Shown: in pieces, positions 33,501-60,107 of the stretch
How positions within the stretch are numbered: the stretch's first letter is position 1
Layout: each line of letters starts with the position of its first letter
Source: Dehalococcoidia bacterium
GTDB taxonomy: Bacteria > Chloroflexota > Dehalococcoidia > Lucifugimonadales > JAGWBF01
DNA length: 64,000 nucleotides
Assembly: GCA_965226865.1 (NCBI GenBank)
Contig: CBDDEH010000004.1
Location: 1,704,586-1,768,585, forward strand
Direction: 5' to 3'
Program-made: the position numbers and the translations under genes
Notes under the pieces: generated by a model
The model's input: the letters and a program-made list of their open reading frames with translations, nothing else
Database searches by the model: none
What the model was told of the DNA's origin: nothing

Positions 33501-33688
33501 GGCAGGCTGGGGTTCAACTCGGCGAGGGAGTCCGGCACCCGACGCTCCAGAACCACCTGCCCATAGTCGGTGCGCTCGGCGTTGGGCGTGCCCGGCGCGA
33601 TGTCCGGGCCGTGGGCCACCTGCCAGCCCAGGGCGGAAAGCCAGTCAAGGGCGGCTTGCTCAACATCACCTTCATTTAGGTTGGTCAT
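30545..33688 (-). pseudogene. hsdR: type I restriction enzyme R subunit, two frameshifts
   Basis: Three overlapping ORFs (32849-33688, 31230-33056, 30545-31747) together carry an HsdR N-terminal nuclease region plus helicase motifs ([31 protein letters not shown]). The sense frame switches near 32977 (one G missing) and near 31771 (one extra G). Confidence 0.9.
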
Positions 33689-34741
33689 GGGTGCTCCCAG
33701 AGATGAACTCGGGGCCTATATGCAAATCGCCGTTATCAACAGGAGTCATTTGCAGTCCCTCCTGTGCGAAGTAATTGATTAGGGCTGTCTTGTAATCGTC
33801 TAGGGGTTCCGCCCGCACCACTTGGGATAACTCTAATCCCGATTGGCTAAGCGAGGCGCCACGAAGCGGGAAGCCTGGAGAACGCGGCTTCATAGAACGG
33901 GGTCCACCGACTGGATAGAGCACCCAGTACTGACTTTGAAAACGAAAAGGATATCGGTTCGTTTGATCGGGTTGGATTCTTCCAAACCCAATGGCGGATT
34001 GCATGTCATGCCAGGAATCATAGTTTGGGTTGACCAGACCATGGGTGTTGAGCAAATCCAGGTAACTGCTGCGAAAACCATGTGTCGTAATGCGGTCGAA
34101 ACACGCATTACAGACTCTACCGTCGTCGTCGCTGGCATAACGGGTTCCCTCCGAGTAGACACAAAGAACGCAAAACCAACTAAAGATGCGAGCTACGTGT
34201 TGATTCATATCCTTCAGAACACGCAGGGTTCTAAAGGACGTGCTTCCAGGCCGTTCTACTTCACCTGCAAGTATTTTCGCCCATAGTTGCTGCATATCTT
34301 CGGAGGATACGTCTTGAACATCGTCGAAGAATCGAGCAGTCCAGTCGTGATCAACTTCGTGGTCTTGGACTTCCTTGTCTCCAAGCTCCAGTGCTGCCTG
34401 TCTTACTATGCTGCCAATGTTGGCCTGTCGCTTCTCCTCCTGAAACTGAATCCTCTGCGTAACCACCGTTCCAAATTCCAACTGGCCCTGCACGGTAGCG
34501 TCTGGTGATACCAGCTTAGCGCGGGCATCTGCCTGAGCACTGGCAATGATGCCATGGTAGTTGCTTGACCTTCTGCGAGGATCCTCTGTGCTTCAGCTTC
34601 TCCTTGGGCAACTATAGATTTAGCCTTGGCTTCTTGCCGGGCTTTCCAGGAGGCCAACATGGGGCCCGCTACGCTACCTATCCCACTGGCAGCATAGTCA
34701 AGTAATTTCTCAATGGCAGGAACTTTTAGGTTGATGTCCAT
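33672..34741 (-). pseudogene. DUF2806-like protein, one frameshift
   Basis: ORF 34406-34741 gives the N-terminal helical part (IEKLLDYAASGIGSVAGPMLASWKARQEAKA). ORF 33672-34493 gives the core (EDMQQLWAKILAGEVERPGSTSFRTLRVLKDM). The frames switch near 34550. It overlaps the hsdS stop and the hsdR start. Confidence 0.6.
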
Positions 34742-36363
34742 CGGCTCACTCCGTTAACTCCAACCTCCCCCGACACCAACCCCGGCAGCAGCGCATCCCG
34801 TTGCGCAGCGAGGGTATGGGACTCGTGGATTGCCGATACGATTCGATTAACGCATGGCTCGACCAGTCTGGTGAAGGCTTTGGACACTTCTATGCTTGGA
34901 AGTGCGACCTTGTAGCGAGCCATGTCTGCCCAATTGGTGCGCGGCATCCTTGTGCCGGTAGACGTGGCATCAGTATAGGCTACAAACTCTGCGCTAGATG
35001 TATGACCAAGGACAAATCCAGACCACAGATTCGACTTGGGCTGCACAACAACAATGTCTGTTGAGCACACCCCATCCAATGGAGCGACGCCAACCTTGTG
35101 AAAGTATGGTCGCAGTTTCCCGAACAAGATGTCTCCCTGCTCGAACTTGAACTTGCCGCTGGCTAGTCCATCTGCGTTGCTCCATTGCGTAAGCGCGATG
35201 CAACGCTTGGGCATGTGTTCAAGCGCAATGTAGTGTGACTCTGCGTCAATCTCCTCCGGTTTTACTCCCGACCGGCGTTGCTTTGCCACCTCCCCAAGCG
35301 CCTTCACCCCCCACCCCTCCGGGATCTCCCCCAGCTCCGAGTCCACGAGGCGGTCGGGGAACAAGTCGTAGTGTCCGGCAGGGAGGCCGGGGAGCGACTC
35401 GCCCCTACGCCAGCGGCCCTCCATCTTGGCCCGCACCGGGTCGAAGTTCACGAACCACGACTTGAACAGCGCCCGCGCCATCGCTTCCAGCATCTCGTTC
35501 ATGCGCCGGTTCAACTCGATCTTGTCGTCCAGCACACCAAGGACGTGGGCGATGGCCCGCTGCTCCGATAGGGGTGGGAGGGGAACGGTCAAATGGTCCA
35601 GGGAGTCCACCGGTACCCGCTGGCGTCCGGAAGTGCCGGTCATTTGGCCAATAGCGTAGTTACGAACTTCCTCCCATTTGGTCAAGTAGTAGGCAAAGTT
35701 GGTGTCGGTTACGTCAGCGCGTCCTCGTATCACGATGAATTCTGTTGAGCCGTGGGCCTCTAGTTTGTCGCCCACAGCTTGGTATCGGGCGATTTTGCCA
35801 TTCTCAAGACAAGGGGTAATGCGGGCCATCAGAGTGTCACCACTCTGGAACCTGGAACCGCTGCCCTTGAATGTCCGTTCCTCCACCGAGACAGTGGTTC
35901 TCGAATCCGCATTCACAGCTGCCATGTCAACGAAGGGATAAATTGCACCCCGGTCAAGCCGAGTCGGCGGGTTGACCAGCACCGCTTCGCTGAACAGCGC
36001 CACGCGCCACGCGCCATCCACCCTCCCTGGGGCGCGTACCAATGGCAGAGCTACCCTTTGCTCCTTCACGATCTGCTTGAAGGCATGGCTGACGGCGTTT
36101 AGGTCCACCACGTCCACCGTGTAGGGAAGTGTCGAGTCCTCAAATGCGCCTTTCAACGCTCCCAACAACTTGTGGCTGAGCTTGCTCTCACCATCCAGGG
36201 CCAGGTCCAGGTCTGACGAATCCTTCGTAGTCCAATTAGTGCGGCTCCCGAACACCCAGACCTTGACATCCACAGGCAGATGCTCGCGCAGAATGCCCTG
36301 CACGATTTCAAGATGGTCAGGCCGGATGTCCACCGGGCTAGTCAAGGGATTCGATCCTCTCAT
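34726..36363 (-). CDS. hsdS: minimal nucleotidyltransferase (MNT) domain fused in frame to type I specificity subunit HsdS
   Basis: Residues about 1-105 form an MNT domain (VWVFGSRTNWTTKDSSDLDLAL ... YTVDVVDL). The rest is an HsdS with two TRDs, the central conserved helix (LPPLSEQRAIAHVLGVLDDKIELNRRMNEMLEAMARALFKSWFV) and the C-terminal helix. There is no stop between the two parts. Confidence 0.8.
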   Translation of the reverse strand: MRGSNPLTSPVDIRPDHLEIVQGILREHLPVDVKVWVFGSRTNWTTKDSSDLDLALDGESKLSHKLLGALKGAFEDSTLPYTVDVVDLNAVSHAFKQIVKEQRVALPLVRAPGRVDGAWRVALFSEAVLVNPPTRLDRGAIYPFVDMAAVNADSRTTVSVEERTFKGSGSRFQSGDTLMARITPCLENGKIARYQAVGDKLEAHGSTEFIVIRGRADVTDTNFAYYLTKWEEVRNYAIGQMTGTSGRQRVPVDSLDHLTVPLPPLSEQRAIAHVLGVLDDKIELNRRMNEMLEAMARALFKSWFVNFDPVRAKMEGRWRRGESLPGLPAGHYDLFPDRLVDSELGEIPEGWGVKALGEVAKQRRSGVKPEEIDAESHYIALEHMPKRCIALTQWSNADGLASGKFKFEQGDILFGKLRPYFHKVGVAPLDGVCSTDIVVVQPKSNLWSGFVLGHTSSAEFVAYTDATSTGTRMPRTNWADMARYKVALPSIEVSKAFTRLVEPCVNRIVSAIHESHTLAAQRDALLPGLVSGEVGVNGVSRWTST

Positions 36364-36773: not shown

Positions 36774-38378
36774 CTACCTCTGTGCCCCGAATCCCAAGCG
36801 TGCCAAGTTCGCCTCGATCTCCGCGTCCAGCCGATGGGCCTCAGCCTGCTGCTCCCTCCATTGAGCAGAGAGTCGAGCCATCTTCTCCTCGAAGGGCTCG
36901 CCGTCGTCCTCCTGCGGCTCCGCGCCGACGTAGCGGCCGGGGGTGAGAACGTGGCCGTGCTTGCGGACCTCCTCCAGCGCCGCACTCTTGCAGAAGCCGG
37001 GTACGTCGGCGTACTCGCCGGAATGTTCCTCCCCGCGCCAGGCGTGGTAGGCGTCGGCGATGCGGGCGATGTCATCACCGGTCAGCTCCCGGTGGGTGCG
37101 GTCAACCATGCGCCCTAGCTTGCGGGCGTCGATGAACAGCAGTTCGCCCCGCCGGTCCCGGTGCTTGCCGCCTCTACGGTCCCTGGACAAGAACCAGAGG
37201 CAGACGGGTATCTGCGTGGAGTAGAAGAGTTGACCGGGCAGGGCCACCATGCAGTCCACCAGGTCCGCTTCTATGAGGTTCTTGCGGATCTCGCCCTCGC
37301 CTGACTGGTTCGACGACATGGAGCCGTTGGCCAGGACGAAGCCGGCAGCGCCGCGCGGCGACAGGTGATGGGCCATGTGCTGCACCCAGGCGAAGTTGGC
37401 GTTTCCCGTGGGCGGGACGCCATACTGCCACCGCTTGTCGTCCCGCAGCCGATCGCCGCCCCAGTCGGAGATGTTGAAGGGGGGATTGGCGAGGATGTAG
37501 TCGGCCTTCAGGTCGGGGTGGCGGTCGTTGTGGAAGCTGTCGCCGTGGGCGATGTTGCCCTCAATCCCGCGAAGAGCCAAGTTCATCCTGGCCAGCTTCC
37601 AGGTGGTGTGGTTGGACTCCTGGCCCCAGATGGAGATGTCGCCGCGCGCCCTGCCCCCATTACCGTTCCCGCTAACGTGGGCATTGATGAACTCTATCGA
37701 CTGCACGAACATGCCGGATGAGCCGCAGCAGGGGTCGTAGACACGGCCTTGGTAGGGTTCTAGCATCTCCACCAGGAGCTTGACGACGCAGCGCGGGGTG
37801 TAGAACTCGCCGCCCTTCTTGCCCTCGGCGCTGGCGAACTGGGAGAGGAAGTACTCGTACACCCGTCCCAGCACGTCTTTCGAGCGGGCTTCCGCGTCTC
37901 CAACCTGGATATTGGTGATCAGATCGATGAGCTGGCCCAGACGGGTCTTGTCCAGGGCGGGCCGGGCGTAGTCCTTGGGCAGCACGTCCTTGAGCGCCGG
38001 GTTGTCTCGCTCAATGGCGGTCATGGCGTCGTCCACCAGTTGGCCGATGACCGGCTGCCGCGCCTGCGCTTTGAGGTGAGGCCAACGAGCCTCCGGAGGC
38101 ACCCAGAAGATGTTCTCGCCGCGGTACTCGTCCATGTCTTCGGGGTCATACCCTTCTTCGGTCCTCGACTCCAGCCAGGCGTGCAACTCTTGGAAGGCGT
38201 CGGAGATGTACTTGAGGAAGATGAGGCCGAGGACGACGTGCTTGTACTCGGCGGCGTCCATGCTGCCCCGAAGGGCGTCGGCCAACCGCCAGAGCTCGGC
38301 CTCGTAACCTGTCAGAGCGCCACTGCTCGATTCGGTGTTCGCGCCGGAGGCAGTCCGTCTCTGTGGCACAGTCGTCAT
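36774..38378 (-). CDS. hsdM: type I restriction-modification N6-adenine DNA methyltransferase subunit
   Basis: 534 aa ORF with an HsdM N-terminal domain, the SAM motif [12 protein letters not shown] and the catalytic NPPF ([15 protein letters not shown]). Confidence 0.93.
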
Positions 38379-38626
38379 GATGCCTCACCCCTTGGTTTGC
38401 TCTTGGAACGCCACCTGTCTACTTCGCGTAGGGCGTTCTTGCCCCCCGGTCCGTATCCGTGATGGACCAGGAAGCCGGGGACGCCGCCGTACTCGACGGA
38501 TATCACCGCAGACTCGGCGGTCTTGTCGTGGCCGGGCAGGAAGAATGAGCCGATTGCCGTCTCCGCGCCGCAGCCGCACCAGCACTCGCCGGTCGGCAGC
38601 AGGCGTTTGGTTGAAGCCATTCTCAT
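38375..38626 (-). CDS. small Cys-rich protein of unknown function, coupled to hsdM
   Basis: 83 aa from the ATG at 38626, with GGGAG upstream. It contains CWCGCG ... FFLPGHDK. Its stop overlaps the hsdM start (ATGA). Confidence 0.5.
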
Positions 38627-38927
38627 ATCTCCCGAAACGAGACCATTGGAATGCCCTTGGACACTGTCCAAGGATACGTTCCTAGGTGCTTCCGAGTCAA
38701 TGCGGAATGGGGAGTTTGATGCCCCACGTCCCTCCTTATGGCCGTGCTCAGGGGCGCTACAACCTATCTCCCAGCCCATCGCAGCCGCTCTAACCAGCAA
38801 CCCTTTTGCCCTCACCACAAGATTGGACTCGACACAATGGCTTGCAAGGCATTACATGCCCGGGTTTTCCGTTCACAATGGGATGTTGGGTAACTGCTTA
38901 CTAAAGCAATGCGCGACTCTGGCACAG

Positions 38928-40661
38928 ATGGGAACGAGGACCTCTAATATGGCTGCGTCCGACCGACAGATGCTTGACTCCCTCAGCCGGATGCCATTCG
39001 TTGATTCGGCGGAGCTGGCGGGCATCCTGGGCGAGCCGCACACGACGGTTCACCGAACCCTGGCCGGCCTGCTGGCTGACGGCATCATCGGGAGGGTGAG
39101 TCACGGCACAGCCCACCTGCCGTCGAGCCAGAGATTCCACCTTACGACCAACGGCATCAGACAGGCCGCCGAAGTACTCGGCTTTGCGACTCCCTCGGAT
39201 TTCGTGCGCGCCTACCCTGTGTCCAGGGAGTGGCTCACGCTGCTCCTCCGCCGGATGGACGCGGTGGCCGCCGTCTACCGACTCGCCGCCTCGATGTCGC
39301 CCGGCATCGACGGGCTACGTTCGCACGTGGAGTTCCACCGGCGGGGGCGCTTCGACGCCACAATCATCAGGCACGACGGCCGCAGCTTCGGCGTGGTGCG
39401 CCAGGGCCTGGCCCTGCGGCGCCGGTCGCTCTACGATCGGCTGAGAGCCATAGCCGAGTACGACTACACGCGCCGCCCCGACACCGTTCTGGTCCTTGTG
39501 CCCAGCGTCTGGGAGGAGAGGCTGACAACGAGGTTCTGCGGGAACCGGAACCTCCGTGACTGCTTCGTCGCCGTGGAGCCCAGGGACGCTCTGGAAAAAC
39601 GGGACCTTCGCCTCTGGTGTTGCACCTCGTGGGTGATCGGTAGCAGGTTCTTCTCCCTGGGGGCCATCAGCTCCCGCGCCAGCCCCGGCGGAGGGCCTCG
39701 CACGGAGTCGCCGGAGCGGAAACGGGCGTCGCTGCCCCGCCCCGAGCGGATGGTGAAAGGTGCGCCGGCCTTCGGCGTCAGCCCGTCTGAGAAGCGGACG
39801 CTCGACCTCGTGACCGACCACCCGATGATCCCCCGTGAGCACCTGGCCCTCTGGCTCGGCATCTCCGAGGGACGGGTCAGCCAGATGATGCGCGGCCTCA
39901 TCAACACCTGGGGCCTCGTCGAGCGTCATGGAAAACGCGGAGACACCCGCTATACGCTGTCCGCCGAGGGCATACGCTACGTCACCCACAGGGACCGCGC
40001 CCAGCTTCCCACCACGCGGGGCATCTGGAGCACCGCCCTCACCACAGACAAACAGGGCTGCAGACGGTACGTGGGCCACCGCATCGAGACGTGGGCGAAG
40101 CAGACGAGGCACGCCGACGGCATCACGTGGTTCCTGTCGAAGCTGGAGGCCGAGGCCAGGGCAGACCCCGACAACGAGCTGGTGTGGTCCGTCCCCACCG
40201 CCAGGTCCGACAGGGCCTACAACTGGGGCGATTCAGCCATCGCACCCGATGCCGTGGGGCAGATGACCGCCCAGGGCCTTCAGATACCGTTCTACTTCGA
40301 GTACGAGCTCCGTGCCCGGCATCCCCAGGGAGTCATTGCCCGCCTGGACCCCTACATGAGCTACTACTGGTCAAACGAGCCTAAGGACGACCAGCCGCCG
40401 TACCCCGTCACCCTGTTCGTCGTGGACACCGAGGAGGTGGAGGCAACCTACGTGCGCACCGCCGCCCGGATGAGCCGGATGTCGCCGCCCATCTTCGTGT
40501 CCTGCGTGCCTGTTCTGTCCCACACGGGGGTACTGGGACGTTCCTGGCGTCCACTGTGGGAGCCGGAGTCCCCACGACTGCCCCTGTCCGCGCTGCGTGC
40601 CTACCAGTGGGACTCACTCCACCACCGGATGCGTCATCGTCCTGTAGGGGGGAATAGATAG
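38928..40661 (+). CDS. tandem winged-HTH / replication-relaxation (Replic_Relax-like) protein
   Basis: There are two successive modules, each a MarR-like wHTH followed by a Replic_Relax-like region (second copy: APDAVGQM ... IPFYFEYELRARHP ... VTLFVVD). The start is uncertain (ATG at 38928 or 38949). The ORF-track start at 38523 overlaps the divergent gene. Confidence 0.55.
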   Translation: MGTRTSNMAASDRQMLDSLSRMPFVDSAELAGILGEPHTTVHRTLAGLLADGIIGRVSHGTAHLPSSQRFHLTTNGIRQAAEVLGFATPSDFVRAYPVSREWLTLLLRRMDAVAAVYRLAASMSPGIDGLRSHVEFHRRGRFDATIIRHDGRSFGVVRQGLALRRRSLYDRLRAIAEYDYTRRPDTVLVLVPSVWEERLTTRFCGNRNLRDCFVAVEPRDALEKRDLRLWCCTSWVIGSRFFSLGAISSRASPGGGPRTESPERKRASLPRPERMVKGAPAFGVSPSEKRTLDLVTDHPMIPREHLALWLGISEGRVSQMMRGLINTWGLVERHGKRGDTRYTLSAEGIRYVTHRDRAQLPTTRGIWSTALTTDKQGCRRYVGHRIETWAKQTRHADGITWFLSKLEAEARADPDNELVWSVPTARSDRAYNWGDSAIAPDAVGQMTAQGLQIPFYFEYELRARHPQGVIARLDPYMSYYWSNEPKDDQPPYPVTLFVVDTEEVEATYVRTAARMSRMSPPIFVSCVPVLSHTGVLGRSWRPLWEPESPRLPLSALRAYQWDSLHHRMRHRPVGGNR

Positions 40662-41216
40662 CGCCGATGCGTCCCTACCTTCCCTCCATGCTGTCTGGGG
40701 GGTGCAAATCGGGGCATCTTGCCTGTCGGCGAGCTTTCGAGAGGCCACAGACCGCCCGATTTGCCCCTGTTTCAGCTATGAAACGGGCTGATGGACCCTC
40801 TGACCGGTCAATGCCTGAAAATGCAAATGGATGGGAAGCCATGCTAAACTACACTGCCTCTCCAATGACACCTCGTTTGCACTTTGCAACCCCTGACGTG
40901 TCATCCGATAGTGAGGGAAACAGCTATGAATGAACCTGTCCGACGTGTGCGGAGAGCTGATGCGGACAGGATTTGGCGCGTTGCGGCGGGTGGCGGCCCA
41001 GTTTGGGCCATCGGTTTTGGCTCGAAACGGCCCGAAACGATGTGGGGGTGGGCGACGCCAATTTATGGCATGAGTAGGAACGGACATCCTGGGCCAATCA
41101 ACTAGGAAATCGTGCAAATAGCGGGGCGGATTCACAGGCGACGGTGACCGGTCATCGTTGGGGCTGGTTCCGCCGGAAGACGGTGTTGATGACAAAAGCG
41201 GGCCACCCCATAGAGG

Positions 41217-41705
41217 ATGGAAATGACCTCTCGGAAGTCTAAGATGAGTGATGGACGGGCATCAAGGGCCGGAGACGATCAGCCCGACCTCAAGTGGGTC
41301 GTGGAGTGGCTCGTCGAGCGGGAAGGACAACGCCGGACGGCGGCGCTGCTGGGCGTGAATCGGAAGACGGTGGCGCTGGCCCTGCAACGGGAGCGATTGA
41401 CGGGCAGGATGACCCTGGCCGTGCAGCGGCTCATGGCGAACCTGGACGATCCCGGATGGGAGAAGACGATCCCGGTGGACCGGTTGGAGGCGAGGATCAG
41501 GCTGGCGATTGAGGCAGTGGACGATCTTGCGAGGCTGGTGGAGCGTCTGACCCGGCGCGTGGAGACCTTGGAGGCGGCGCAGACGACCGGGGACGCCGCC
41601 GGAGACCAGGAGGCGGATGCGCCCGATTCCGAGAGCCGGGGCTTACGTCTGTTCAACTGGAGGCGGAGGCACCAGCCGCATGGCGAGGAAGAGAGCGATG
41701 GCTGA
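41217..41705 (+). CDS. hypothetical protein with putative HTH (AALLGVNRKTVALAL)
   Basis: 162 aa ORF in a GC-rich segment. It has a coiled-coil C-terminal half. I recognise no family. Confidence 0.4.
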   Translation: MEMTSRKSKMSDGRASRAGDDQPDLKWVVEWLVEREGQRRTAALLGVNRKTVALALQRERLTGRMTLAVQRLMANLDDPGWEKTIPVDRLEARIRLAIEAVDDLARLVERLTRRVETLEAAQTTGDAAGDQEADAPDSESRGLRLFNWRRRHQPHGEEESDG

Positions 41706-42141
41706 GCAGGTCCGCTGGGTCTCGAAAGCGGAGGCGGCGCGGGAGCTGGAGGTCTCCATCTCAACCCTCGACCGGATGATCCGGAGGGGGGAGATTGAGG
41801 TCCGCAGGGAGGGCCGCCGGGTCTACGTGCGGCAGAAGGGGCCGGAGTACGTGAGCGACGACGAGCTGTTGCGCCGGTCCCTTGTTCGGGAGGACAAGCT
41901 TCAGCGGACCGTGTGGGAGCTGGATGGGCGAGCATCGGAGTTGGAGCGGGAGAGCGACGAGGCCAGGGAGTCCGCGTCCGCCAGCCGCCAGGCGTATGAG
42001 GAGCTGGAGGAGGAGTACCGGAAGGAGCGAGCCGCACACAAGGTGACGAGGGAAGGGCTCATCGCGGTCCGCGTGACCGCCTTCGTGCTGTTGGCGCTGC
42101 TGGTCGGCAGCGTTCTCCTGTGGTGGTTTGTGCTGAGGTAG
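41698..42141 (+). CDS. excisionase/MerR-type HTH protein with C-terminal transmembrane helix
   Basis: The ATG at 41698 overlaps the previous stop. WVSKAEAARELEVSISTLDRMIRRGEI is Xis-type HTH-like. The C-terminus VTAFVLLALLVGSVLLWWFVL is hydrophobic. Confidence 0.5.
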   Translation: MAEQVRWVSKAEAARELEVSISTLDRMIRRGEIEVRREGRRVYVRQKGPEYVSDDELLRRSLVREDKLQRTVWELDGRASELERESDEARESASASRQAYEELEEEYRKERAAHKVTREGLIAVRVTAFVLLALLVGSVLLWWFVLR

Positions 42142-42189
42142 GGCAGTGGCACGGAGTCAATCACAGCAAACCTTCTCGGGTGGCCATAG

Positions 42190-45100
42190 TCAACCAATAG
42201 TTTGCGTGCTCTTCGGTGAAGAAGAATGACACAGGGGTCTGACGCTGAGGAGGTTGAATAGTGATGACCCTGCCTGAAGAGACGTGGACACGCCGTTGCC
42301 TGAATTGAACGTCAGTGTGCGGGTATTCGCTTGACCGAAGGCTCGAGTGATCTCGGTCCGACTGACGGCGTCGCCAAGGTCGCCATGGTGGTAGATGCAT
42401 AGCAGAATGATGTTACCCGCGTGACGAGCACCACCAGCATTAACGTGATCACAATGCTGCGCTTCCATAATCCGCCGTCGATGTTCGGAAACCTCGACAT
42501 AGCTTGATAGCGGTGCCAGGGTCTGGGGTTCGGCCTCGGCAAGGCAGGCTTGGCAATGCCAAGCATACTGCTTCTCTTTGAGGTCGGCAATCTGGGAACT
42601 CTCATCCGCTGGCTGAGTCCGGCTATTGTTGTTCCTACCTTTGCTAATTCTTTTGATGACCCCGTCACCTTTGACTCCGTTATTCTTCGGAATGGGACCA
42701 AGGTTGGGAAGATTCTTTGACGGGTCAATCTTTGGCACTCGGTGGATAGCTGATGTTTCAAAGGGACTCACGTCTCTGCTATCTCGACTAGTGGTTTCAC
42801 CGTTCTCTACATCCTCCGGAGGTTGTACTCCTTCTGAATACTCCAGAGGATAGCTTTCTCTCATCTCCATCTTCAACGCTAGATCAAGGACGGAGCCGTA
42901 GTACTTCTTGGGGCGTTCGAATGCTCGATCAGCGAGTGCGTCGAAGAAGACCGCCCGTAGGTCCGAAGCTGATCTGATCCAGAGTGTGCCGGACTCTGTG
43001 TCGAGCTTCCCATCTACTGCAACTTGGAATCTGTTCCTCCCCAACTTATAGGTTGCGATGACAGAATCCGAAGTCCGTATGCCTTGGATACTAGCTAGGC
43101 GTTCACGCCAGTTGCTTCTGAGCGCGCCTTGGCGCGCATCAAGGTCGAGTTTGGCCAGCCTCCTTTGCAGCTGCCTTCCCTTCAGGCCGGATATGAGAGA
43201 GTCAAGTATGCGCCTAAAGTCGAATTTTCGAGTAGGTTTGTCCTCTCCCGTTCCTATTGTCGCGATTGGTTCTCCGGCATAGTCACTCAGTGTCCTCACT
43301 TGAAACTCTCGTAGGCGGGCAGTGACCGGCTCGGTTACTCGGGGGCTCTCCACGATGGTTAACTCCACCGGGCGCCGTCCCGTATGCTGCCTTATCGCCT
43401 GTTCTAGCTCCTCGAAGTCAGGGATTACTACCTTACTCCTGCTCTTGGTAGCATCCGCCTTTGTCACTAACCGTACTTTGCCTCCATCGTCCTCGACCAT
43501 AATGAACGGAACCAGAGGGAACATGTCGCTCCATGCGCGTGGTCCGGATTCATGATTGATGTGACGGAGGACTTGATCAGTATGCCTAACAACGACGTCA
43601 GCTTGCTGAGATGCTAGCCACTGAAAGGATTGTCTAGAGCTGTTAGCACTAGGCGTCCCACCGACGACGCCTATCTGTCTATACAGCCTTTGCGTTTCGG
43701 GATTGATATCGGCAACTGGAGCGTGTATCTTCCAGTCGCCCCAGAAGTCCCGGCTTCCTCGCAGTGCAATTTGCTTTGGAGAGCGCAGTTCCCCCTCCAC
43801 GGGTATGCAAGGGATATCGAGCAAGCCGTCGGGTTCTAAGTCCTGGCGTCTGGACTGTTTCACGTATTCTTGAAGCCTCGGCACATGTGCCTCACTGCGG
43901 GCAGCATCCTCACGAAGAGTGTCAACGATTTGGTCAGTCGAGGGAGCGGGCCGCGGCCTCCAGCCATCGATCCTGTCGAGGACACTGTTGGGGCGATCAA
44001 TTATGTGTTCACCCAGCAAGTGAAGACGTAGCATTGCCCCTTCGTTTCTCACCAACTCGCCTGGAACCCTCAAGTTCCCGTTCTTGTCTAAGGCAACGCT
44101 ATACACCTCAGCCAACTCGCCCAGGTATTCCTTCAGTTGTGGTGTAGAGGAGGCGAGGACCGCAAGGTCTTTCTCAAGCTTGTGGAATTCGCGTCGCTCA
44201 TTGGCGGTCAGCTTTCTCTCACGGGGAAATCTGTCGATTCGCTCCGATAAGAATTTCTCGAACTCCTGGAAGGAAGGCACGTTCCTGAAAGTCAGCCGTC
44301 CCCTCCCTTTCCTACTTACAAGGCCACTTCTCAGAAGCTCGCGAGAGGATCGTACGACCACATCACCCATGATGGATGCGACGCGAGTGTGACCTGCCCC
44401 CCAAAAACTGGTCCAGTTATAAACTCGTAAAGTGGAGCTGGTGAGAGGGGGTAGTCAATGGCGAGTAAAAAGCGCAGTGTAGAAGAGATCATAGGGAAGC
44501 TGCGGGAAGCGGAGGTGGCCCTGGCGCAAGGGGAGACGGTGGCCCAGGCATGCAGGGGTATCGGGGTATCAGACCATACGTTTTACCGGTGGCGGCAGCA
44601 GTATGGGGGCTGAGAATAGACCAGGCGAGGCGGTTGCGGGAGATGGAAGCGGAGAACGGACGACTCAGGCGTGCGGTAGCGGACCTGACGTTGGACAACC
44701 AGATTCTGAAGGAGGCAGCACGGGGAAACTTCTGAGCCCGGCCCGCCGGCGGAGATGCGTGGAGTTGGCACGGGAACGGTATGGCATCTCTGAGCGGCGC
44801 GCTTGCCGGGCGCTTGAGCAACCCCAGTCAACACAGAGGTACACTGCAACAGTGGCCGATGATGAGGAGGCCCTGACGATGGCAGTGGTTCGGCTGGCCA
44901 GTCGGTACGGACGGTATGGGTACCGGCGGGTGACTGCCATGCTGCAATGGGAGGGATGGAGAGTGAACCACAAGCGGGTGGAGCGGATCTGGCGACGGGA
45001 AGGACTCAAGGTACCAGCCAAACAGCCCAAACGGGGCCGACTCTGGCTTACTGACGGCTCCTGCGTGCGGCTGAGGCCACAACGACGGAACCACGTCTGG

Positions 45101-47633
45101 GCATACGACTTTGTGGCCCTTCGTACCAGTGACGGCAAACCCGTTCGTCTCCTGACAGTGGTGGATGAGTATACCAGGGAGTGTCTGGCCATCCATGTGG
45201 GTCGCTCGTTACGCTCACCCCATGTCATTGAATGCCTGGGGGACCTCATGGTCCAGCGTGGCGTGCCGGAGCACCTCCGCTCGGACAACGGGCCGGAGTT
45301 CACCGCCAGGGCGGTGCGGTTGTGGCTCCAAGGGGTGGGAGTCACAACCCTCTTCATCACACCGGGTAGCCCTTGGGAGAATGGGTATGTTGAGAGCTTC
45401 AACGGCAAGCTTAGGGACGAACTCTTGGACCGGGAGCTCTTCGATACCCTCTGGGAGGTGCAGGTCCTCACCGAGCAGTGGCGCCACGAGTACAACCACC
45501 AACGCCCCCACAGCGCCCTGGGCTATCGCCCTCCTGCTCCAGAGGCCATCCTCACCTCCTCTGCTCCAAGCGCTATCAGTGTCTCATGATTTGCGGTACA
45601 ACTATTGGGGGCAGGTCAAGTGTTACGAGGCTCACACAGGCTGTTCAGGGGCAGCATGTTGCCATTGGAACTTGGCCACACGGGCAAGTCGGCGATTCGT
45701 GTCAGAGTTTTCCTTCGCTTGACTTTTCTCCAGTTATTGTGGAGCCACGTCCAAAACGACTTACGCTCAGCCAGTGAAGCCGTTTCGAGTTGACCATTAT
45801 CGAGGTAGTCGTCCAACGTAAATGGCTTGGGTCTCCAAGCTCTCCGCTTCAGGAGACGGTGATCCCGTAGCTCTGGATGAACAATCGGCACGTACCCCCG
45901 CTGCCCGAGATCTGGCGGTAGATTCACGGCACTAAACATTTCCGCCAGTGGCCTCGCCGTGCCGCCAGCGTCGGGCAGGTAGGCATTCTCTATGACCTCT
46001 GATTCAACTGGCGCTCTACGTTCGTAGAAGGCCTTGTATGCGACATCCAAGTAGGTTCTTGCAACTGAAGTGTTACCTAGAGCCGCTTGCCATTCGGGTT
46101 CGTCCTTCCATGGAAAGTGTTCAGCTTCCTGTTGAGGCTGTAGGCGTTCGATGGCATCGTCTTCATCGAAAGTAGTCACGAGGTCATCAAAGCCGTCGTT
46201 AGGCAGATAACAGTTGTCGCCCAGATAAGACAAGATAGCCCTAGGGACAGTCCTGTCAATCTGATCTTCGCCATGTGGACATATGTCCGAGAGAAGATCA
46301 GAGATTCGCTGGCGGTCCCATGTAAACATTGGCAAGACGACCCTGCGAAGAGTGCCGTCGGATGTCTTCCTTGGTCCCAGCACAAGCCTCTTGGGTCGAC
46401 TTGATGCCCGTACTCTGTCTGCAAGTGGCAACGCCCGCCTGTCAAGTGTGCGGCCCAAGAGATCCTTCAGGGGTTCATTCCATGGAGTATGAGGATCGGC
46501 CAGGTAGAGCTCCATCGCCCTCCCGCCGTGTCGATGAAGCAGATAACTGGCCATGATATCTACAAGTGCGTCTTTGCACCCATCGTCAATGTAGTCGTTC
46601 AGAGAGTCTATCTGACTGGTGCCATGTCTTTCGGCATCAGAGAGGTAAGGACCTGAGAAGTGGACGCCCACTCCACTTAGCGCCGATTGCGATGTAGCGT
46701 CATATCCAATCGGGTATCTTCGAACTCCCTTGGCTGACTTCGGAGTGCCTCTCTTGTCTGTGAGCCACGCTATCTCTGCCGTGAAGGATTTCCCGTCCCT
46801 CGCGAAGAAGTCTGGAATCTCGGGGCGCCTTCCTGTAGGGAATGGGAGCCTGAACGTGCAGGCCTGCTCGTGTATGGAAGTTGAAGGTACGTCAGGCACG
46901 TTCGAGGTGGTGGTACACTCCCTGCCAATGCTGTAAACCGTCTTCGACCCCTGCCATTGACGTTCCGCCCTCTCTTGGCTCGCCAATGAATTTCGACAGA
47001 CCCTAGAGTGTGGTGGCTCAGGCGAAGCGTGTACTGATCACGAATTCCAGGACGGACTACACCCATCAGCCTGCCCGGTAGAAGTTCGCAGGCGTTCCTG
47101 AAGAGTGCCTCTAGTGAGATTTCATCAGGGATTCCAATCGTTAGAGCTTCACCCTTCTCAACTACTAACTCCCGTTCGCGGTAAGGGACTTCAATGGAGC
47201 ACCCGGTAGGCGGAGCCGTATTGTCCGGGACCGGCTCCAGAAACGTTCCCGGCGATGGCTGATTCTCATAGCCGTACTGATACAAGGTCTGGACCATCCT
47301 GAGGCCATCTGACCGCACAATGAATTCATCGCCGAGCCAGAAACACGCCTTCAGGCCGTGGTTCTTAACGCCTATCTGGAACCGCTTGCTCTCAACCCTG
47401 ACACCCGCGCCCATCACATAGGAGAGCCGGCACCAGCCATCACCGCTTACGGGTTCACCGTCTCCCTGGCAGATCAGCCGGTCAGAAGTGAAGGTGATGG
47501 AAGTACGGGATGCTTTGGCGTCCAAATCATTCTGAATAAGCTCAACTATCAGGTCAGCGGAGCGCAAGCCCTTTAGGAACTGCCAAAACCGTGGCTCATC
47601 ATCGAACCTCTGGACATATCCCGGACCTTCCAA
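42190..47633 (-). pseudogene. giant ORF of about 1400 codons with a GHKL (sacsin/MORC-type) ATPase head and a C-terminal HNH nuclease, split by an IS3-family insertion and one frameshift
   Basis: N-terminal Bergerat motifs ELIQNDLDA, QGDGEPVSGDGW and IGVKNHGLKACF. C-terminal WHCQAC ... HCDHVNAGGARHAGNIILLCIYHH. The stop of ORF 45616-46986 is the IS terminal TGA. Removing the IS plus one AGTG joins it in frame to ORF 42190-44370. There is a frameshift near 46.97-46.99 kb. Confidence 0.75.
44390..45618 (+). mobile_element. IS3-family insertion sequence (IS407-like ends)
   Basis: Inverted repeats TGACCTGCCCCC(C)AA at both ends. 4 bp duplication AGTG (44386-44389 and 45619-45622). orfA starts at 44458 and is broken at the G5 run 44605-44609. 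orfB with its DDE domain runs to 45589 (WAYDFV, TVVDEYTRE, SDNGPEF). Confidence 0.9.
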
Positions 47634-47719
47634 GGCTAACCTCCTACTTCACCCTATTGAGACATCATCAGGCTGCTGAGAGCACCTTTGACAACCAGTC
47701 GCGTGCGAATGCTCAGTAT

Positions 47720-47758
47720 CCTTGACATTATTAACTCACTGCGTTAATAATGTCAAGG
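47720..47758 (+). promoter_or_regulatory. higBA promoter embedded in a perfect 16 bp inverted repeat (candidate HigA operator)
   Basis: CCTTGACATTATTAAC-7 nt-GTTAATAATGTCAAGG. It contains TTGACA (47722-47727), a 17 nt spacer and TAATAA (47745-47750). The higB ATG at 47759 lies 8 nt after the -10 element. Confidence 0.6.
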
Positions 47759-48037
47759 ATGAACCGATTCAGACACGACGACGCCCAGCGGCTCTTCGCC
47801 GGAGACCCGGTCCGACGCTTGCCGCCCGACATCCAGCGACGGGCGCGAGTGAGATTGCAGCGAGTCGTAGCAGCTGCGGCGCTCACCGACCTTCGGGTGC
47901 CGCCCTCCCACCGGCTAGAAGCCCTGCGTGGGAACCGGGAGGGGCAGTACAGCATCCGGATCAACGACCAGTGGCGCGTGTGTTTCATCTGGACTGGCCA
48001 AGGTGCGATGGAAATAGAAATCACCGACTACCACTGA
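47759..48037 (+). CDS. higB: HigB-type toxin (RelE/ParE superfamily, plasmid maintenance killer protein)
   Basis: LTDLRVPPSHRLEALRGNREGQYSIRINDQWRVCFIW ... EIEITDYH. The ORF track starts 9 nt earlier, at 47750 inside the palindrome. Confidence 0.85.
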   Translation: MNRFRHDDAQRLFAGDPVRRLPPDIQRRARVRLQRVVAAAALTDLRVPPSHRLEALRGNREGQYSIRINDQWRVCFIWTGQGAMEIEITDYH

Positions 48038-48048
48038 GGAGGGAATTC

Positions 48049-49436
<1,388 letters not shown>

Positions 49437-49643
49437 TACGCTCGGTCAATAGGCCTATTGGCTGGGCAGGCGGGGAGGGCGCGTCGTAAGCAACTGGGTG
49501 AGCCAGGCGGAACCCTGGACTGCACCGGCGAACAGTGAGACACCCTTCCCTCCGTACTGGTCGCTCCGAACGGATACACGGGCTTCGGGCCCGCATCTAC
49601 AAGTGTGGAGGACACAGGCACCATCAAACCGGGAGGGTAAGAC

Positions 49644-50576
49644 ATGGAAGTGGTAGCAGGCATTGACGTAGGCAAAGTCAGCTTGGACGTTTCGGTATCA
49701 GAGGGTCCGGTACTCCGGTTCGGCAACACGGCGAAAAGCATTACCAGGCTGCTGAGACATCTGAAGGAGCAGTGCACCACCATGACCGTGTGCGAATCCA
49801 CCGGCGGGTACGAGCGGCTACTGGTCAGCCGGTTGCGGAAGGCCGAGATAGCAGTGCGCGTGGCTCACCCGAGCCGGGTGCGTTCCTTCGCCCGGGCCTG
49901 CGGCTACGAAGCCAAAACCGATCCTAGAGACGCTCAGGTGCTGTCCCGTTTCGGCCAGGTGTTCCCTGATTCAGACACGCCGGAACTGGAGCCGGAACGC
50001 GAGGAATTGCAGGACTTGCTGCGCAGGCGGCGGCAGTTCGTGGAACAGCGAGTCCAGGAGCTGAACCGGCTGGACAAGGGCGTCTCCGCTGCCGTTGCCA
50101 ACTCTACCAAGCGCCACATCGCCTGGCTGGATAAGGAGATTGCGCAGCTGGAGGAGGAGTACCAGGAAGCGCTGCAGAGTAGCTCTTCCCTGGCCCAGCG
50201 CGCCGCGTTGTACCGCACCGTGCCTGGTGTGGGACCATTGACCGCTGCCATCCTGGTAGCCCATCTGCCCGAACTGGGCCATTGGGACAGCAAAGCATTG
50301 ACCTCCCTGGTGGGTCTGGCCCCCTGGTCTCGAGATAGCGGCCAGAAGCGAGGCCAGAGGGCAATCCGGGGCGGCCGCGGCATAGTGCGTAAAGCCCTCT
50401 ACCTCTGTGCATGCTCAGTGATTCAGGTCAATGGCGAACTACGCCGTTTCTACCAGAACCTGCGTCAACGTGGGAAACCCGGAAACTTGGCCTTGGTGGC
50501 AGTGATGCGCAAGCTGCTGTTGCAGTTGAACGCGCTAGCTCGGCGGCAAACACCCTGGGTTGTGCGGCCCGGATAG
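49644..50576 (+). CDS. IS110-family transposase (intact)
   Basis: 310 aa ORF with VAGIDVGKVSLDV ... TVPGVGPLTAAILVAHLPELG ... LAPWSRDSG ... AVMRKLL. It lies head to head with the other IS110 copy. Confidence 0.85.
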   Translation: MEVVAGIDVGKVSLDVSVSEGPVLRFGNTAKSITRLLRHLKEQCTTMTVCESTGGYERLLVSRLRKAEIAVRVAHPSRVRSFARACGYEAKTDPRDAQVLSRFGQVFPDSDTPELEPEREELQDLLRRRRQFVEQRVQELNRLDKGVSAAVANSTKRHIAWLDKEIAQLEEEYQEALQSSSSLAQRAALYRTVPGVGPLTAAILVAHLPELGHWDSKALTSLVGLAPWSRDSGQKRGQRAIRGGRGIVRKALYLCACSVIQVNGELRRFYQNLRQRGKPGNLALVAVMRKLLLQLNALARRQTPWVVRPG

Positions 50577-50724
50577 AGGTATCTACTCCTCAATTTGGCA
50601 AAGACCTTGACACCCAACCACGGATACTGTTCGGGCTCTGTTCGGGAGGGGTGCGGCGACCCTCGCTTCGTGACGGTCTTCTATGACCTGGGAGGTTGCG
50701 GTCTGCCGCGCCCCGATCCACCTA

Positions 50725-50766
50725 AGTGAAGTGATTGTTACACACCAAAACCAAGATACAAGGAGG
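50725..50766 (+). repeat. 42 bp leader repeat, copy A (5-prime UTR and RBS of the serine recombinase gene)
   Basis: agtgaagtgattgttacacaccaaaaccaagatacaaggagg is identical to 60066-60107. Confidence 0.9.
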
Positions 50767-50771: not shown

Positions 50772-51905
50772 ATGAAGAAGAAGCACCTACAGCCGCTTAC
50801 ACCTGCGGCACTCTACGCCAGGGTATCCAGCGACCGGCAGGACGTGGACCTGTCCGTGTCCGCCCAGCTTCGGGCGCTCAAGGACTACGCCAGGGCCAAC
50901 GACTACTCCGTAGCCCGCGAGTACGTGGACGAGGCCGAGAGCGGCCGAGTGGCAGACAGGCCCCAGTTCCGGGAGATGATCGAGGAGGGCGGCAAGGCGA
51001 AGTCCCCCTTCGACGTGATTCTCGTATGGAAGTTCAGCCGCTTCACCAGGAAGCGCGAGCACGCCGTCGCCTTCAAGTCAATGCTACGGCGCAAGGGCAT
51101 CAGAGTGGTGTCCATCACCGAACAGGCAGAGGACAACGCCACCGGCAGGCTGCTTGAGGGAATCATCGAGAGCGTGGACGAATTCTACAGCGAAAGTCTT
51201 GCCCAGGACGTCGTCCGGGGGATGAGAGAGGCCGCATCGAGGGGCTTCTTCCTCGCTTCCAACGCTCCCTTCGGCTACAAGCGGGTCAAGGTGAACGACG
51301 GGGTGAAGGAGCGTCCCACGCTGGAGGTTGACCCGGCCACCGCCCCCATAGTGAGGGAGATATTCGAGAAGTCGCTCAGGGGCAGCGGCCTCAAGGAGAT
51401 ATGCAAGGAACTGAACGACCGGGGCATCACCAACCGTGGCAAGCGCTGGTACAAGGGAACGGTCCACTACGTCCTGAGAAACGAGGCGTACACTGGAACC
51501 GCCGTCTGGGGCAAGACGAGCAAGGGCCAGGAGGCCCAGGACCCTGTAAGGGTGGAAGGAGCGTGGCCCGCGCTGGTGTCGAGGGAGCTGTTCGACGAGG
51601 TGCAGCAGGCGATGCGGGACCGTGCGCCGAAGGTGCGGAGGCCCGCGAGAGTGGGGAGCAGGTTCCTGCTGAGCGGGCTACTCAAGTGCGGAGTCTGCGG
51701 CAGGCCCTACTCCGCCCAGGGAGCCAAGAGCGGCCAGTTCGCCTACTGCATCTGCGGCACCCTGTTCAGGGAGGGCGCGGGGACGTGCAGCGCCCGCTAC
51801 CTAAACGCCCCGAAGCTGGAGACGTTCGTGGTGGAGAATATGGATGAGAGACAATCGACACGAAAAACTACGGTACTCGTGGGCGGTGGGCCTAGAGCCG
51901 GTTGA
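50772..51905 (+). CDS. large serine recombinase, C-terminally truncated
   Basis: Catalytic YARVSSDRQ, the recombinase domain and the Zn-ribbon (CGVCG ... YCICG ... C) are present. The usual coiled-coil and C-terminal region are absent. The last 20 or so codons look unrelated, and composition changes near 51840. Confidence 0.8.
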   Translation: MKKKHLQPLTPAALYARVSSDRQDVDLSVSAQLRALKDYARANDYSVAREYVDEAESGRVADRPQFREMIEEGGKAKSPFDVILVWKFSRFTRKREHAVAFKSMLRRKGIRVVSITEQAEDNATGRLLEGIIESVDEFYSESLAQDVVRGMREAASRGFFLASNAPFGYKRVKVNDGVKERPTLEVDPATAPIVREIFEKSLRGSGLKEICKELNDRGITNRGKRWYKGTVHYVLRNEAYTGTAVWGKTSKGQEAQDPVRVEGAWPALVSRELFDEVQQAMRDRAPKVRRPARVGSRFLLSGLLKCGVCGRPYSAQGAKSGQFAYCICGTLFREGAGTCSARYLNAPKLETFVVENMDERQSTRKTTVLVGGGPRAG

Positions 51906-58016: not shown

Positions 58017-58356
58017 TGATCCTGGTCCCATACTGTGCCGCGAACGTGCCCAACCACAGGAGCGTTCAACGAGCTGTGATAGACCGCGTTGCCCCGGACA
58101 CGACTCCGGGGCTTATCGGGTCCCGTCCTGGTCTGGCCGGGGCGGCAACAAAACAAGGGACACGCATTGGGAGATTGACGCCTTGCCGCTTGCATACGAG
58201 CGATGTGTCCTGAACGACAAAAGGCCACACACATAGACGAGCAGGGGCAGCCATCGTGTCCAAGCAGTGGCTGCCCCTGTAATTGATGAGTCAGCGCCCT
58301 GCGCCTGCCTAGCCAGCAGGCAGGCCGACCAACTCCTCCTCTCTTTCTTCATCTAA

Positions 58357-60062
58357 GCCCGAATCCACCGAAGGACGGCCTTGGGGACAGGCCTTGAAGA
58401 AGCCAGCGGGTGCTCCTCTGAATCTGGGATAATGGTTTTGGAACAGAAACCCGCCCGGAAACAAGGAGCACCCAATAGATGCTGCCACAGAACAAACCCG
58501 ACCGTATCCGCATCCTCTTTGACGACCATCGCCTGGTGGCCAATGCCGGCCTGCTCCTGCCGGCCACCCTAGCCCGGCACCTGGGCCTGCGGGAACTCGT
58601 CGACCATCACCTTGACCTCGGCGGAGCGCCGGGACGGGCGAACACTGGGGACAAGATGCTGACGCTGGTCGCTTCCGCGCTGGCAGGCGGCGACTGCATC
58701 GACGACGCCGATGCGCTGCGCGCTGGTGGGACGGTCGGTGTTCCAGGCTGCGTGGTCAAGGCGCCATCCACCCTGGGGACCTTCCTGCGCAGCTTCCGGT
58801 GGGGGCATGTCCGTCAACTCGACCGCGTGAGCCGCCAGTTGTTGGCCCGGGCCTGGGCCGCTGGGGCCGGACCCGGCGACTCGCCCCTGACCATCGACCT
58901 GGACTCGACCATCTGCGAGACCTACGGACTGGCCAAGGAGGGAGCGCGCCACCACGGCTATACCGGCGCCCGGGGCTATCACCCGCTGCTGGCCATTGCC
59001 GCCGGCACCGGAGACGTGCTGATGTCCCGGCTGCGCGAGGGCCCGTGCCAACACCGCCCGTGGCGCCGCCCACTTCCTGCGTGAGACGGTGGGACGGGTG
59101 CGCTACGGCGGGGCCAGGGGGCAACTCACGGTGCGGGCCGACAGCGGCTTCTACGCCCACACTGTCGTTGCCGCCTGCCGGGAAATGGATGTCCGCTTCT
59201 CCATCACCATCCGCCAGCGCGCCAGCCTGCGGGACCTGATCGAGGCGATACCAGAGGAGGACTGGACTCCCATTCCCCACTGGATGGACGGCGCCGCCGA
59301 TGTCGCCGAGACGACTTACACCCCGTTCCAGACCAAGCCGGACGCCCCGCCGGCGCGGCTCATTGTCCGGCGGGTGAAGCCGACACCCGGTTCCCAGCTG
59401 GCCCTCTTCGCCAGATACAGCTATCACGGCTTCATCACCGACCGGGACGGGGAGTTGCTCGAACTGGAGGCTGACCATCGCCGCCACGCCGAGGTCGAGA
59501 ACGCCATACGCGACCTCAAGTACGGCGTCGGGCTGAACCACATGCCGTCGGGGCGCTTCGCCGCCAACGGCGCCTGGCTGGCGGTCCAGGTGATGGCGCA
59601 CAACCTGGCCCGCTGGACAGCCCGCATCGGCCTGGGTCAGCAGATCGTGACCACCAAGACCCTCAGACGACGGGTCTTCGCTCTGGTGGGACGGATCACC
59701 CGCTCGGCGCGCCGCCTCACTTTGCATCTCCCCCGGCGCTGGCCCTGGGAAACCCAGTTCAGTCGCGCCTTGGCCCGGCTGCAAGCCATTCCGTTCCCGG
59801 CCTGACGGCCAGCCTGCAACTGACCCAACGTCCCCGCAATCTCGCGCCACCCCGGTCGCGAGAGTCCCCTGCTGCGTATCCTCTCGCCATCCCGCGCATC
59901 GCAACTCCCGCATAGGGCCTTAGGGGCCCTGTGCGGCGACTGAAGACCGTCCGCCGGCCTCCCATCTACCCCAAGACCCCAGGCCATCTCCCCTGTAGCT
60001 CCCTCACCCACCCCCTTCCGCTGTCCTCACGCCGTCCATCGGTGTCCTTCGGTGGATTCGGG
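58357..60062 (+). mobile_element. IS1380-family insertion sequence, copy 2 (transposase frameshifted once)
   Basis: It has the same ends as copy 1 and the same extra C (59042-59044) splitting the transposase into 58479-59084 and 59089-59805. The left flank is CTAA and the right flank is TTTA, so the duplication is not matched. Confidence 0.85.
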
Positions 60063-60065
60063 TTT

Positions 60066-60107
60066 AGTGAAGTGATTGTTACACACCAAAACCAAGATAC
60101 AAGGAGG
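60066..60107 (+). repeat. 42 bp leader repeat, copy B (5-prime UTR and RBS of the Cys/His-TM protein gene)
   Basis: Identical to 50725-50766. It begins 4 nt after the IS1380 copy 2 right end. Confidence 0.9.

Follow-up and report, generated by a model that had tools for sequence, protein, structure and literature searches.

A pseudogene for a 1413-residue protein with a GHKL head and a predicted HNH end, a candidate single-protein defence factor from Dehalococcoidia

A 64,000-nucleotide stretch of a Dehalococcoidia bacterium genome (contig CBDDEH010000004.1, positions 1,704,586 to 1,768,585; hereafter the window, with position 1 its first letter) contains three open reading frames (ORFs) on the minus strand, 46770-47633, 45616-46986 and 42190-44370, with a transposase gene between the second and the third. 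Are these separate genes or the remains of one and, if the latter, what does that gene encode? A first-pass annotation made from the sequence alone took the three ORFs for a single gene of about 1400 codons, and the ORFs are at the coordinates that it gave. The region 42161-47633 is an inactivated copy (pseudogene) of a stand-alone gene for a 1413-amino-acid protein. The intact control allele is locus L011 from a Dehalococcoidia metagenome-assembled genome (CBDHEI010000002.1), which is drawn from a species-representative genome collection and is 98.8-99.4% identical to window positions 38818-48383: this locus has no insertion sequence (IS), CACT occurs only once at its empty site, and its ORF of 1413 codons runs without interruption (L011:10001-14242). 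Three 'hypothetical' ORFs and a transposase thus become one named pseudogene, with the following parts and lesions.

42161-47633, minus strand: whole disrupted gene, 1413 codons after correction for the IS, one AGTG copy and two 1-nt deletions
46929-47633, minus strand: segment 1, codons 1-235, predicted GHKL (Bergerat) ATP-binding head of the sacsin/Hsp90 type
46927-46928, minus strand: frameshift 1, one base lost from an A/T triplet at codon 236 (CATTTGG in L011, CATTGG in the window)
45619-46926, minus strand: segment 2, codons ~237-699, Hsp90-middle-like domain and first part of the unassigned region; the AGTG at 45619-45622 forms its end
44390-45618, plus strand: IS3-family insertion sequence, 1229 bp, with inverted repeats, an rve transposase and a target duplication
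44386-44389, no strand: target-site duplication AGTG, second copy at 45619-45622, single copy in the empty site of L011
42275-44385, minus strand: segment 3, codons ~700-1376, remainder of the unassigned alpha/beta region, disordered linker and predicted HNH core
42273-42274, minus strand: frameshift 2, GGG to GG at codon 1377, from comparison with L011 and homologues
42161-42272, minus strand: segment 4, the last ~37 codons and the stop, conserved C-terminal tail

The gene starts with TTG (47631-47633), and TTG or GTG starts are also found in its relatives; the stop codon is TGA (42161-42163). The apparent stop of the ORF 45616-46986 belongs to the IS, whose terminal TCA is a stop codon on the minus strand; copies of AGTG flank the IS at 44386-44389 and 45619-45622, and removal of the IS together with one AGTG leaves a stop-free frame that reads ...LCEPRNTRVASIMGDVVVRSS..., as the first-pass annotation had described. 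This frame has 1204 codons. It had also placed one frameshift between the first two ORFs, at 46.97-46.99 kb; a frameshift is indeed present, but its site is about 50 bp away, at ~46928, where homologues read through GRGRRRF-x-x-F/I-GREC. A second 1-nt loss, at ~42274, had been overlooked and is revealed by alignment with homologues and with L011, and the gene does not end at 42190, as had been supposed, but at the TGA at 42161-42163, which is reached in another frame. The conserved tail ...RVITIQPPQRQTPVSFFFTEEHANYWLTMATREGLL of the window copy continues in the frame of a small ORF, 42161-42400, and homologues all end with ...G-[KR]-V-x-T-I-x-P-P-Q-R...FFT-x-x-H-x-x-YWL.... Leaving the three lesions aside, 19 codons distinguish the window copy from L011 (10 synonymous and 9 non-synonymous, numbers too small to separate relaxed from purifying selection), and the window copy contains no further stop; the inactivation is recent.

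The inserted element has the characteristic features of the IS3 family, namely a DDE (rve) orfB, TG...CA inverted repeats and a target duplication of 3-5 bp (here AGTG). The inverted repeats are 12 nt long and perfect (TGACCTGCCCCC at 44390-44401 and GGGGGCAGGTCA at 45607-45618), orfB (44603-45589) matches rve, rve_3 and HTH_21 (E 3e-28 to 5e-14), and the zipper segment of orfA and orfB are in the expected frames (-1). The reading frame of orfA (44459-44737) is lost directly behind ...YRWRQQYGG, in a G5 run near 44606; this break is upstream of and in addition to the normal -1 shift into orfB. The element is missing at the same site in L011 and in a further locus, L015, and no second copy is found in the window or among the 35 loci searched.

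Broken or partial copies of the gene are common, accounting for 7 of the 25 genome loci. In L014, whose gene is ~74-79% identical to that of the window, a different IS3-family element with intact orfA and orfB (L014:11843-13124) is inserted independently at codon ~612. An insertion hotspot was considered and rejected, given that this is another element at another codon (~612 compared with 699 in the window). In L015, which is 99% identical to L011, an IS of 1.7 kb with a DDE transposase (L015:12314-14006) cuts the gene short at codon 772, and a stop codon also occurs prematurely near codon 630. The window itself has, at 28299-30019 and 58353-60067, two copies of an element of 1.7 kb that encodes a 432-aa DDE-type transposase and is 83% identical to the truncating element of L015. 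Turnover of the gene is fast: among three near-identical Dehalococcoidia genomes, it is intact in one, cut by the IS3-family element in another and truncated by a different IS in the third.

The two single-base deletions may represent further decay or may be assembly errors, and the only certain lesion of the window gene is the IS insertion. Several observations point to assembly error. Both frameshifts are 1-nt losses in short homopolymers; the window and L011 differ over 8.3 kb by five indels, all single-base and four of them in homopolymers; one of these, in a G5/G6 run, leaves a 712-aa Replic_Relax ORF (38523-40661) whole in the window and split in L011; and the orfA of the IS3-family element, again at a G5 run, and the HsdR gene of the window are frameshifted as well. 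On the other side, the first 27 kb of the window consist of densely packed intact ORFs of up to 1179 aa, so that the frameshifts are concentrated in the island, which points to real decay. The three indels outside the gene are at window positions 38861, 39663 and 40721 (L011:16614-17672 and 15743-16768), and the HsdR gene (30797-33682) matches the HsdR of locus L001 in three pieces, in frames -1, -3 and -1, which amounts to at least two frameshifts.

A search with the repaired protein identifies 263 homologue clusters at 90% identity, many of which are intact proteins of 1397-1430 aa with 97-100% query coverage and 36-78% identity; none of these clusters has a precomputed Pfam domain, and their sole name is 'hypothetical protein'. 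An exhaustive profile search of 1.84 billion representatives (at 50% identity) yields only 528 proteins at E<=1e-3, of which 193 reach E<=1e-30, and the full-length matches are all 1348-1443 aa long. The homologues thus form a compact, isolated family, and its intact members are single ORFs of ~1350-1440 aa, in agreement with the proposal that this is one gene rather than two. The 25 genome loci are spread over six phyla: Chloroflexota (Dehalococcoidia, SAR202 and others), Latescibacterota, Actinomycetota (Acidimicrobiaceae), Verrucomicrobiota (Spartobacteria), Gemmatimonadota (Gemmatimonadaceae) and Proteobacteria, the last represented by Alpha- and Gammaproteobacteria (Microvirga, Mesorhizobium, Sphingomonas, Azospirillum, Agrobacterium, Pseudomonas and Methylococcales). 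Scans of the repaired protein against Pfam, NCBIfam and PADLOC detect no significant family, with sub-threshold matches to sacsin and marginal matches to TmtA, and sequence searches of the Protein Data Bank (PDB) with full-length and C-terminal profiles detect nothing below E 0.2.

The N-terminal part of the protein belongs to the GHKL (Bergerat-fold) superfamily, as proposed in the first-pass annotation, to judge both from its modelled structure and from an invariant motif I. A model of residues 6-1120 was built with AlphaFold2 from a 90-sequence alignment and has a predicted local distance difference test score (pLDDT) of 85.9; natural fragments, P0043 and P0014, were used as the first rows of the model alignments. 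A Foldseek search with this model identifies Hsp90/TRAP1, MORC2/3, PMS2/MutL, GyrB and the sacsin repeat SR1, with probability 1.00 and E-values from 4e-9 to 7e-6; for Hsp90/TRAP1, MORC2/3, PMS2 and sacsin SR1, the range is 4e-9 to 5e-6. The matched region is the N-terminal ~600 residues, over which the alignments to the N and M domains of Hsp90/TRAP1 (e.g., TRAP1 structures 5hph and 4z1i) span ~560-630 columns with an E-value of 4e-9; the TM-score to sacsin SR1 (5v44, 5v46) is 0.51-0.54.

The motifs quoted in the first-pass annotation are all present in the gene. Motif I, ELIQNDLDA (47517-47543), conforms to E-x-x-x-N-x-x-D with the catalytic Glu and the Mg-binding Asn; the motif II region is QGDGEPVSGDGW (47433-47468), and motif III is IGVKNHGLKACF (47340-47375). 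In 22 sequences with 25-98% identity, E31, N35, D38, G57, G59, G88, K90, N91, H92 and G93 are invariant, and E31, N35 and D38 of motif I along with G88, K90, N91, H92 and G93 remain so in 90 sequences. Motif II has the form C-x-G-[DN]-G-x-P-V in this family, with G57 and G59 invariant, and departs from the canonical D-x-G-x-G; judging from the sequence alignments, this departure is a sacsin-type deviation that is shared with TmtA. Among profiles, NF047352 (sacsin N-terminal ATP-binding-like) scores 29.6 bits with the window protein against a cutoff of 50 and matches all nine members compared, with a best E-value of 5e-9 but always below the cutoff. PF25794 (SACS) matches one of 22 members with an E-value of 0.3, and HATPase_c_3 from Pfam matches five of 22, with a best E-value of 0.011.

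A second model covers residues 235-1413 (the 1185-residue model, pLDDT 81.8) and shows, in order, a long confident alpha/beta region, a linker, a strand-strand-helix unit and a small sheet-plus-helix tail. The linker is disordered (~60-80 residues with pLDDT <50, window ~42600-42850). The ~600-residue region that follows the Hsp90-like part has no structural match, and a Foldseek search with this model against PDB and the BFVD database detects nothing below E 0.1.

The C-terminal domain is predicted to be an HNH (beta-beta-alpha-metal) nuclease, a proposal of the first-pass annotation that sequence comparison supports. The window gene encodes YAWHCQAC at 42544-42567 and AQHCDHVNAGGARHAGNIILLCIYHH at 42385-42462. 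The triad H1316, N1330 and H1339 (L011 numbering) is invariant in 20-22 sequences with 24-98% identity, and its H-x13-N-x8-H arrangement (spacing 14/9) is canonical for beta-beta-alpha-metal nucleases. At this motif, the model has two predicted strands and a helix (1084-1088, 1103-1107 and 1108-1114, respectively, in P0014 numbering). Family members match HNH profiles of the PHROG collection, i.e., phrog_1271 (12 of 20 members, best E 8e-4), phrog_8048 (9 of 20, best E 1.3e-4) and phrog_7785 (11 of 20), along with ten or more other families of HNH or endonuclease VII nucleases. The best sensible profile match in PDB is Cas8f-HNH (E 0.33), whose core HH..GG..N..L..HH aligns residue for residue with the core of the family. 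The C-terminal tail that follows, FFTxxHxxYW at 42164-42226, contains invariant F134, T135, H138 and W142 (numbering of alignment A7).

What, then, is the likely role of this protein? Analysis of the genomic context of the homologues reveals defence or mobile-element genes in 9 of the 10 annotated neighbourhoods and in that of the window, such that the neighbourhoods are defence islands or mobile elements, as anticipated in the first-pass annotation. Examples include a type I restriction-modification (R-M) system with MNT/HepT, TIR and AbiE (P0013); CBASS (P0088); SIR2, a PLD nuclease and AbiEii (P0036); integrases and two AAA_15/DUF3226 pairs (P0069); AAA_15, a HerA-like ATPase and a PIN toxin (P0073); and an integrative and conjugative element (ICE), in which the gene is accompanied by a TrwC relaxase, an adjoining coupling protein and an integrase (P0115, locus L039). 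Clustering of 1003 neighbouring ORFs from 28 loci gives no family present in more than 4 loci; HsdM and a large serine recombinase are the two that reach this number. The idea of a conserved partner is thereby rejected, and it appears that the gene acts alone.

Comparison with named systems indicates that the family resembles Tiamat, VcSduA and paraMORC3 in outline and belongs to none of them. The closest is Tiamat TmtA, which is annotated as 'Hsp90, DUF3684, DUF3883' and was verified in Bacillus cereus FORC_005 (Millman et al. 2022, bioRxiv 10.1101/2022.05.11.491447, supplementary file 11); Tiamat is counted among single-gene systems with a PD-(D/E)XK domain (bioRxiv 10.1101/2024.10.26.620412). 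Like TmtA (1429-1590 aa), the family consists of single large proteins (1413 aa here) encoded in defence islands, with a predicted C-terminal nuclease and a sacsin-type GHKL head in which the motifs follow the same layout, E-x-x-Q-N-x-x-D ... [ND]-G-x-P-[FV] ... IG-x-K-x-x-G. An hhalign comparison of N-terminal profiles, both longer than 600 residues and that of TmtA made from N-terminal fragments only, aligns 81 columns of the head and nothing beyond (E 4.5e-6, probability 87%), with motif II of the family opposite N-N-G-x-P-F of TmtA; single-sequence and profile runs consistently align ~81-85 head residues. The similarity ends at about residue 115. Neither DUF3684 nor DUF3883 gives a Pfam match at E<=10 in 22 N-terminal and 22 C-terminal halves, the PADLOC TmtA models give weak colinear matches in several members (E 1.3e-4 to 0.07) over 35-110 residues of ~1500 profile positions, and the predicted nuclease is HNH rather than the PD-(D/E)xK of TmtA. 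Membership in Tiamat is rejected on account of the head-only alignment, the lack of DUF3684 and DUF3883 and the shortness of the TmtA matches, and the first-pass annotation was right that this architecture corresponds to no named system. We found no published account of how the nuclease of Tiamat is gated by its ATPase.

In VcSduA (Shedu type I-D of the Vibrio cholerae WASA lineage), which was experimentally shown to be an anti-phage protein and of which variants made to disrupt the ATPase and nuclease motifs were tested by its authors (PMC12137116), a single polypeptide likewise combines an N-terminal GHKL ATPase, a clamp-like middle and a C-terminal nuclease. Judging from its description, VcSduA is set apart by a canonical HATPase_c head and a DUF4263 PD-(D/E)xK nuclease, whereas the present family has a sacsin-type head, a predicted HNH domain and a very large unassigned region. 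The paraMORC3 proteins are GHKL modules fused to a C-terminal nuclease, encoded as stand-alone genes with a sporadic spread; paraMORC1 co-occurs with HNH endonucleases, and the paraMORC/MORC proteins were predicted to use ATP for DNA manipulation in restriction (Iyer, Abhiman & Aravind 2008, PMC2292703). Fusion to a C-terminal nuclease, a stand-alone gene and sporadic spread also describe our family; the paraMORC/MORC proteins differ in having GHKL plus S5 modules and RE-fold, TIR or HEPN C-termini, in contrast to the Hsp90/sacsin N+M region as best fold match, the fused HNH and the marginal HATPase_c_3 match seen here. The fold of the first ~600 residues is shared with sacsin SR1 and Hsp90, which, in distinction, are eukaryotic chaperone-type proteins without a nuclease.

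Taken together with the defence context, these analogies make it probable, by a modest margin, that this one polypeptide serves as a defence factor against phages or plasmids. Its parts, in order, are a sacsin/Hsp90-type GHKL head, an Hsp90-middle-like domain, ~600 unassigned residues, a flexible linker of ~60 residues, and a predicted HNH domain with a small tail. In the proposed mechanism, ATP binding would cause the head to dimerise, the dimerised head and the middle region would close as a clamp on foreign DNA or on a ligand of phage origin, and the closed clamp would license the tethered HNH domain to cut DNA. Candidate cues are a DNA modification, a DNA structure or a phage protein, and, given that no methyltransferase or other partner is conserved, discrimination of self from non-self would lie in the large middle region.

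Several points weigh against this assignment. The candidate defence role is attributed through guilt by association, and one locus (P0008 in L036), with LigA, HicB and glycosyltransferases, is the only weak case and not clearly defensive. A tblastn search of 72,556 plasmids and 50,697 phage records finds zero matches to the family. With respect to the head, the sacsin and HATPase_c_3 matches in NCBIfam and Pfam stay below curated cutoffs, and the non-canonical motif II means that binding and hydrolysis of ATP by the predicted head are not assured. With respect to the HNH end, the Pfam profiles HNH and HNH_2 are matched with E-values of 0.15-0.16 only, the top matches of the whole 1185-residue model in Foldseek include no HNH structure, and the CxxC...CxxH zinc ligands that are kept in the Chloroflexota clade are lost in the alphaproteobacterial clade, despite retention of the triad. 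The clamp-and-cut mechanism is drawn by analogy with the GHKL engines MutL, MORC, Hsp90 and VcSduA and with the paraMORC predictions, and it is put forward more tentatively than the defence role itself.

The alternative that survives best is that the protein is an abortive-infection or toxic effector, in which the Hsp90/sacsin-like N+M region would sense a phage protein and the HNH domain would degrade host and phage DNA alike, killing or arresting the cell. That the N+M regions of Hsp90/TRAP1, clamps for client proteins, are closer in fold than MutL or MORC, that no modification enzyme is conserved nearby, and that the gene is so frequently inactivated, as befits a costly or self-toxic gene, all suit such an effector. 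Yet DNA is the usual target of GHKL modules that are fused or linked to nucleases (PMC2292703), the neighbourhoods include no conserved antitoxin-like partner, and the present data do not separate protein sensing from DNA sensing; we consider this alternative unlikely. A more novel reading, rather doubtful at present, is that the Hsp90/sacsin-like N+M region together with the unmatched ~600-residue region forms a chaperone-derived immune receptor, which would sense a phage protein or an unusual DNA state, as opposed to sequence or methylation, and would gate the HNH domain through an ATP-driven clamp. If so, it would represent a new single-protein defence system, distinct in mechanism, with its centre in Chloroflexota and other environmental bacteria that have been little studied.

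It is improbable that the gene is a selfish or competition factor of integrative elements, one that by addiction or exclusion of rivals would benefit the island and not the host. Its position inside an ICE in L039, next to the coupling protein and relaxase genes, the large serine recombinases that lie beside it in 4 of 28 loci, and the presence of Replic_Relax, HTH_17 and a serine recombinase in the window island all speak for such a role; many loci, however, have no recombinase within 10 kb, and the plasmid and phage collections contain no match to the family. The split from host defence is mostly one of who benefits, which sequence cannot settle.

MutL, a universal repair protein, acts together with MutS. 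A MutL-like repair or recombination enzyme, serving host genome maintenance rather than conflict, is very improbable: the order of parts does parallel that of MutL/PMS2 (GHKL head, second domain, disordered linker and C-terminal endonuclease), the N-terminal domains of PMS2/MutL are among the fold matches and one locus adjoins a gene for NAD-dependent DNA ligase, but the nuclease fold differs, no MutS-like partner is found, and the family is rare, patchily distributed over six phyla and tied to defence islands and mobile elements, with the gene intact in one and broken in two of the three near-identical genomes.

Under the favoured reading as a defence factor, the family would join the GHKL-ATPase-plus-nuclease proteins (Tiamat, Shedu type I-D/VcSduA and paraMORC3), an emerging class of single-protein immunity, as a third, independent combination that consists of a sacsin-type head, a large new middle region and a predicted HNH nuclease. 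Both sets of catalytic motifs are invariant over six phyla, intact alleles in cultured Proteobacteria are open to direct testing, with homologues in Microvirga zambiensis WSM3693, Sphingomonas sp. MA1305 and Agrobacterium burrii Rnr, and the family is a good candidate for a defence screen.

The neighbourhood of the gene in the window lies entirely downstream of a tRNA-Ala(GGC) gene (27075-27150) and includes, in order, HsdS (34726-36363), HsdM (36774-38378), Replic_Relax, HTH_17, the disrupted gene, HigB/HigA, two IS110-family elements and a large serine recombinase. The first-pass annotation placed the gene between a type I R-M operon and higBA; both are present, but the gene does not directly adjoin the R-M operon, from which the Replic_Relax and HTH_17 genes separate it. 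It also described the segment as less GC-rich than its neighbours. The contrast is real (54.3% in the gene and 63-64% in the flanks), but the gene is not the outlier: its GC content agrees with that of the window's first 26 kb (55%), and it is the GC-rich flanks that stand out in composition. The tRNA-Ala gene marks a compositional break, with a GC content of ~55% over 1-26 kb and of 59-66% over most of 28-42, 48-52 and 58-64 kb, and the region downstream of it looks like a mosaic of integrated elements.

The 545-aa ORF at 34726-36363 contains an N-terminal Pol-beta-type nucleotidyltransferase domain (residues 20-103) in addition to the type I specificity (Methylase_S) domain; MNT, HepT and HsdS are separate genes in L001, and the window ORF may be a fusion or a merged call. 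A block at 48384-50759, with higBA on one side and the gene for the large serine recombinase (50772-51905) on the other, is missing from L011 and L015. It contains the two IS110-family elements, one with a transposase split on the minus strand into 48261-48767 and 48804-49436 and the other with an intact transposase at 49644-50576.

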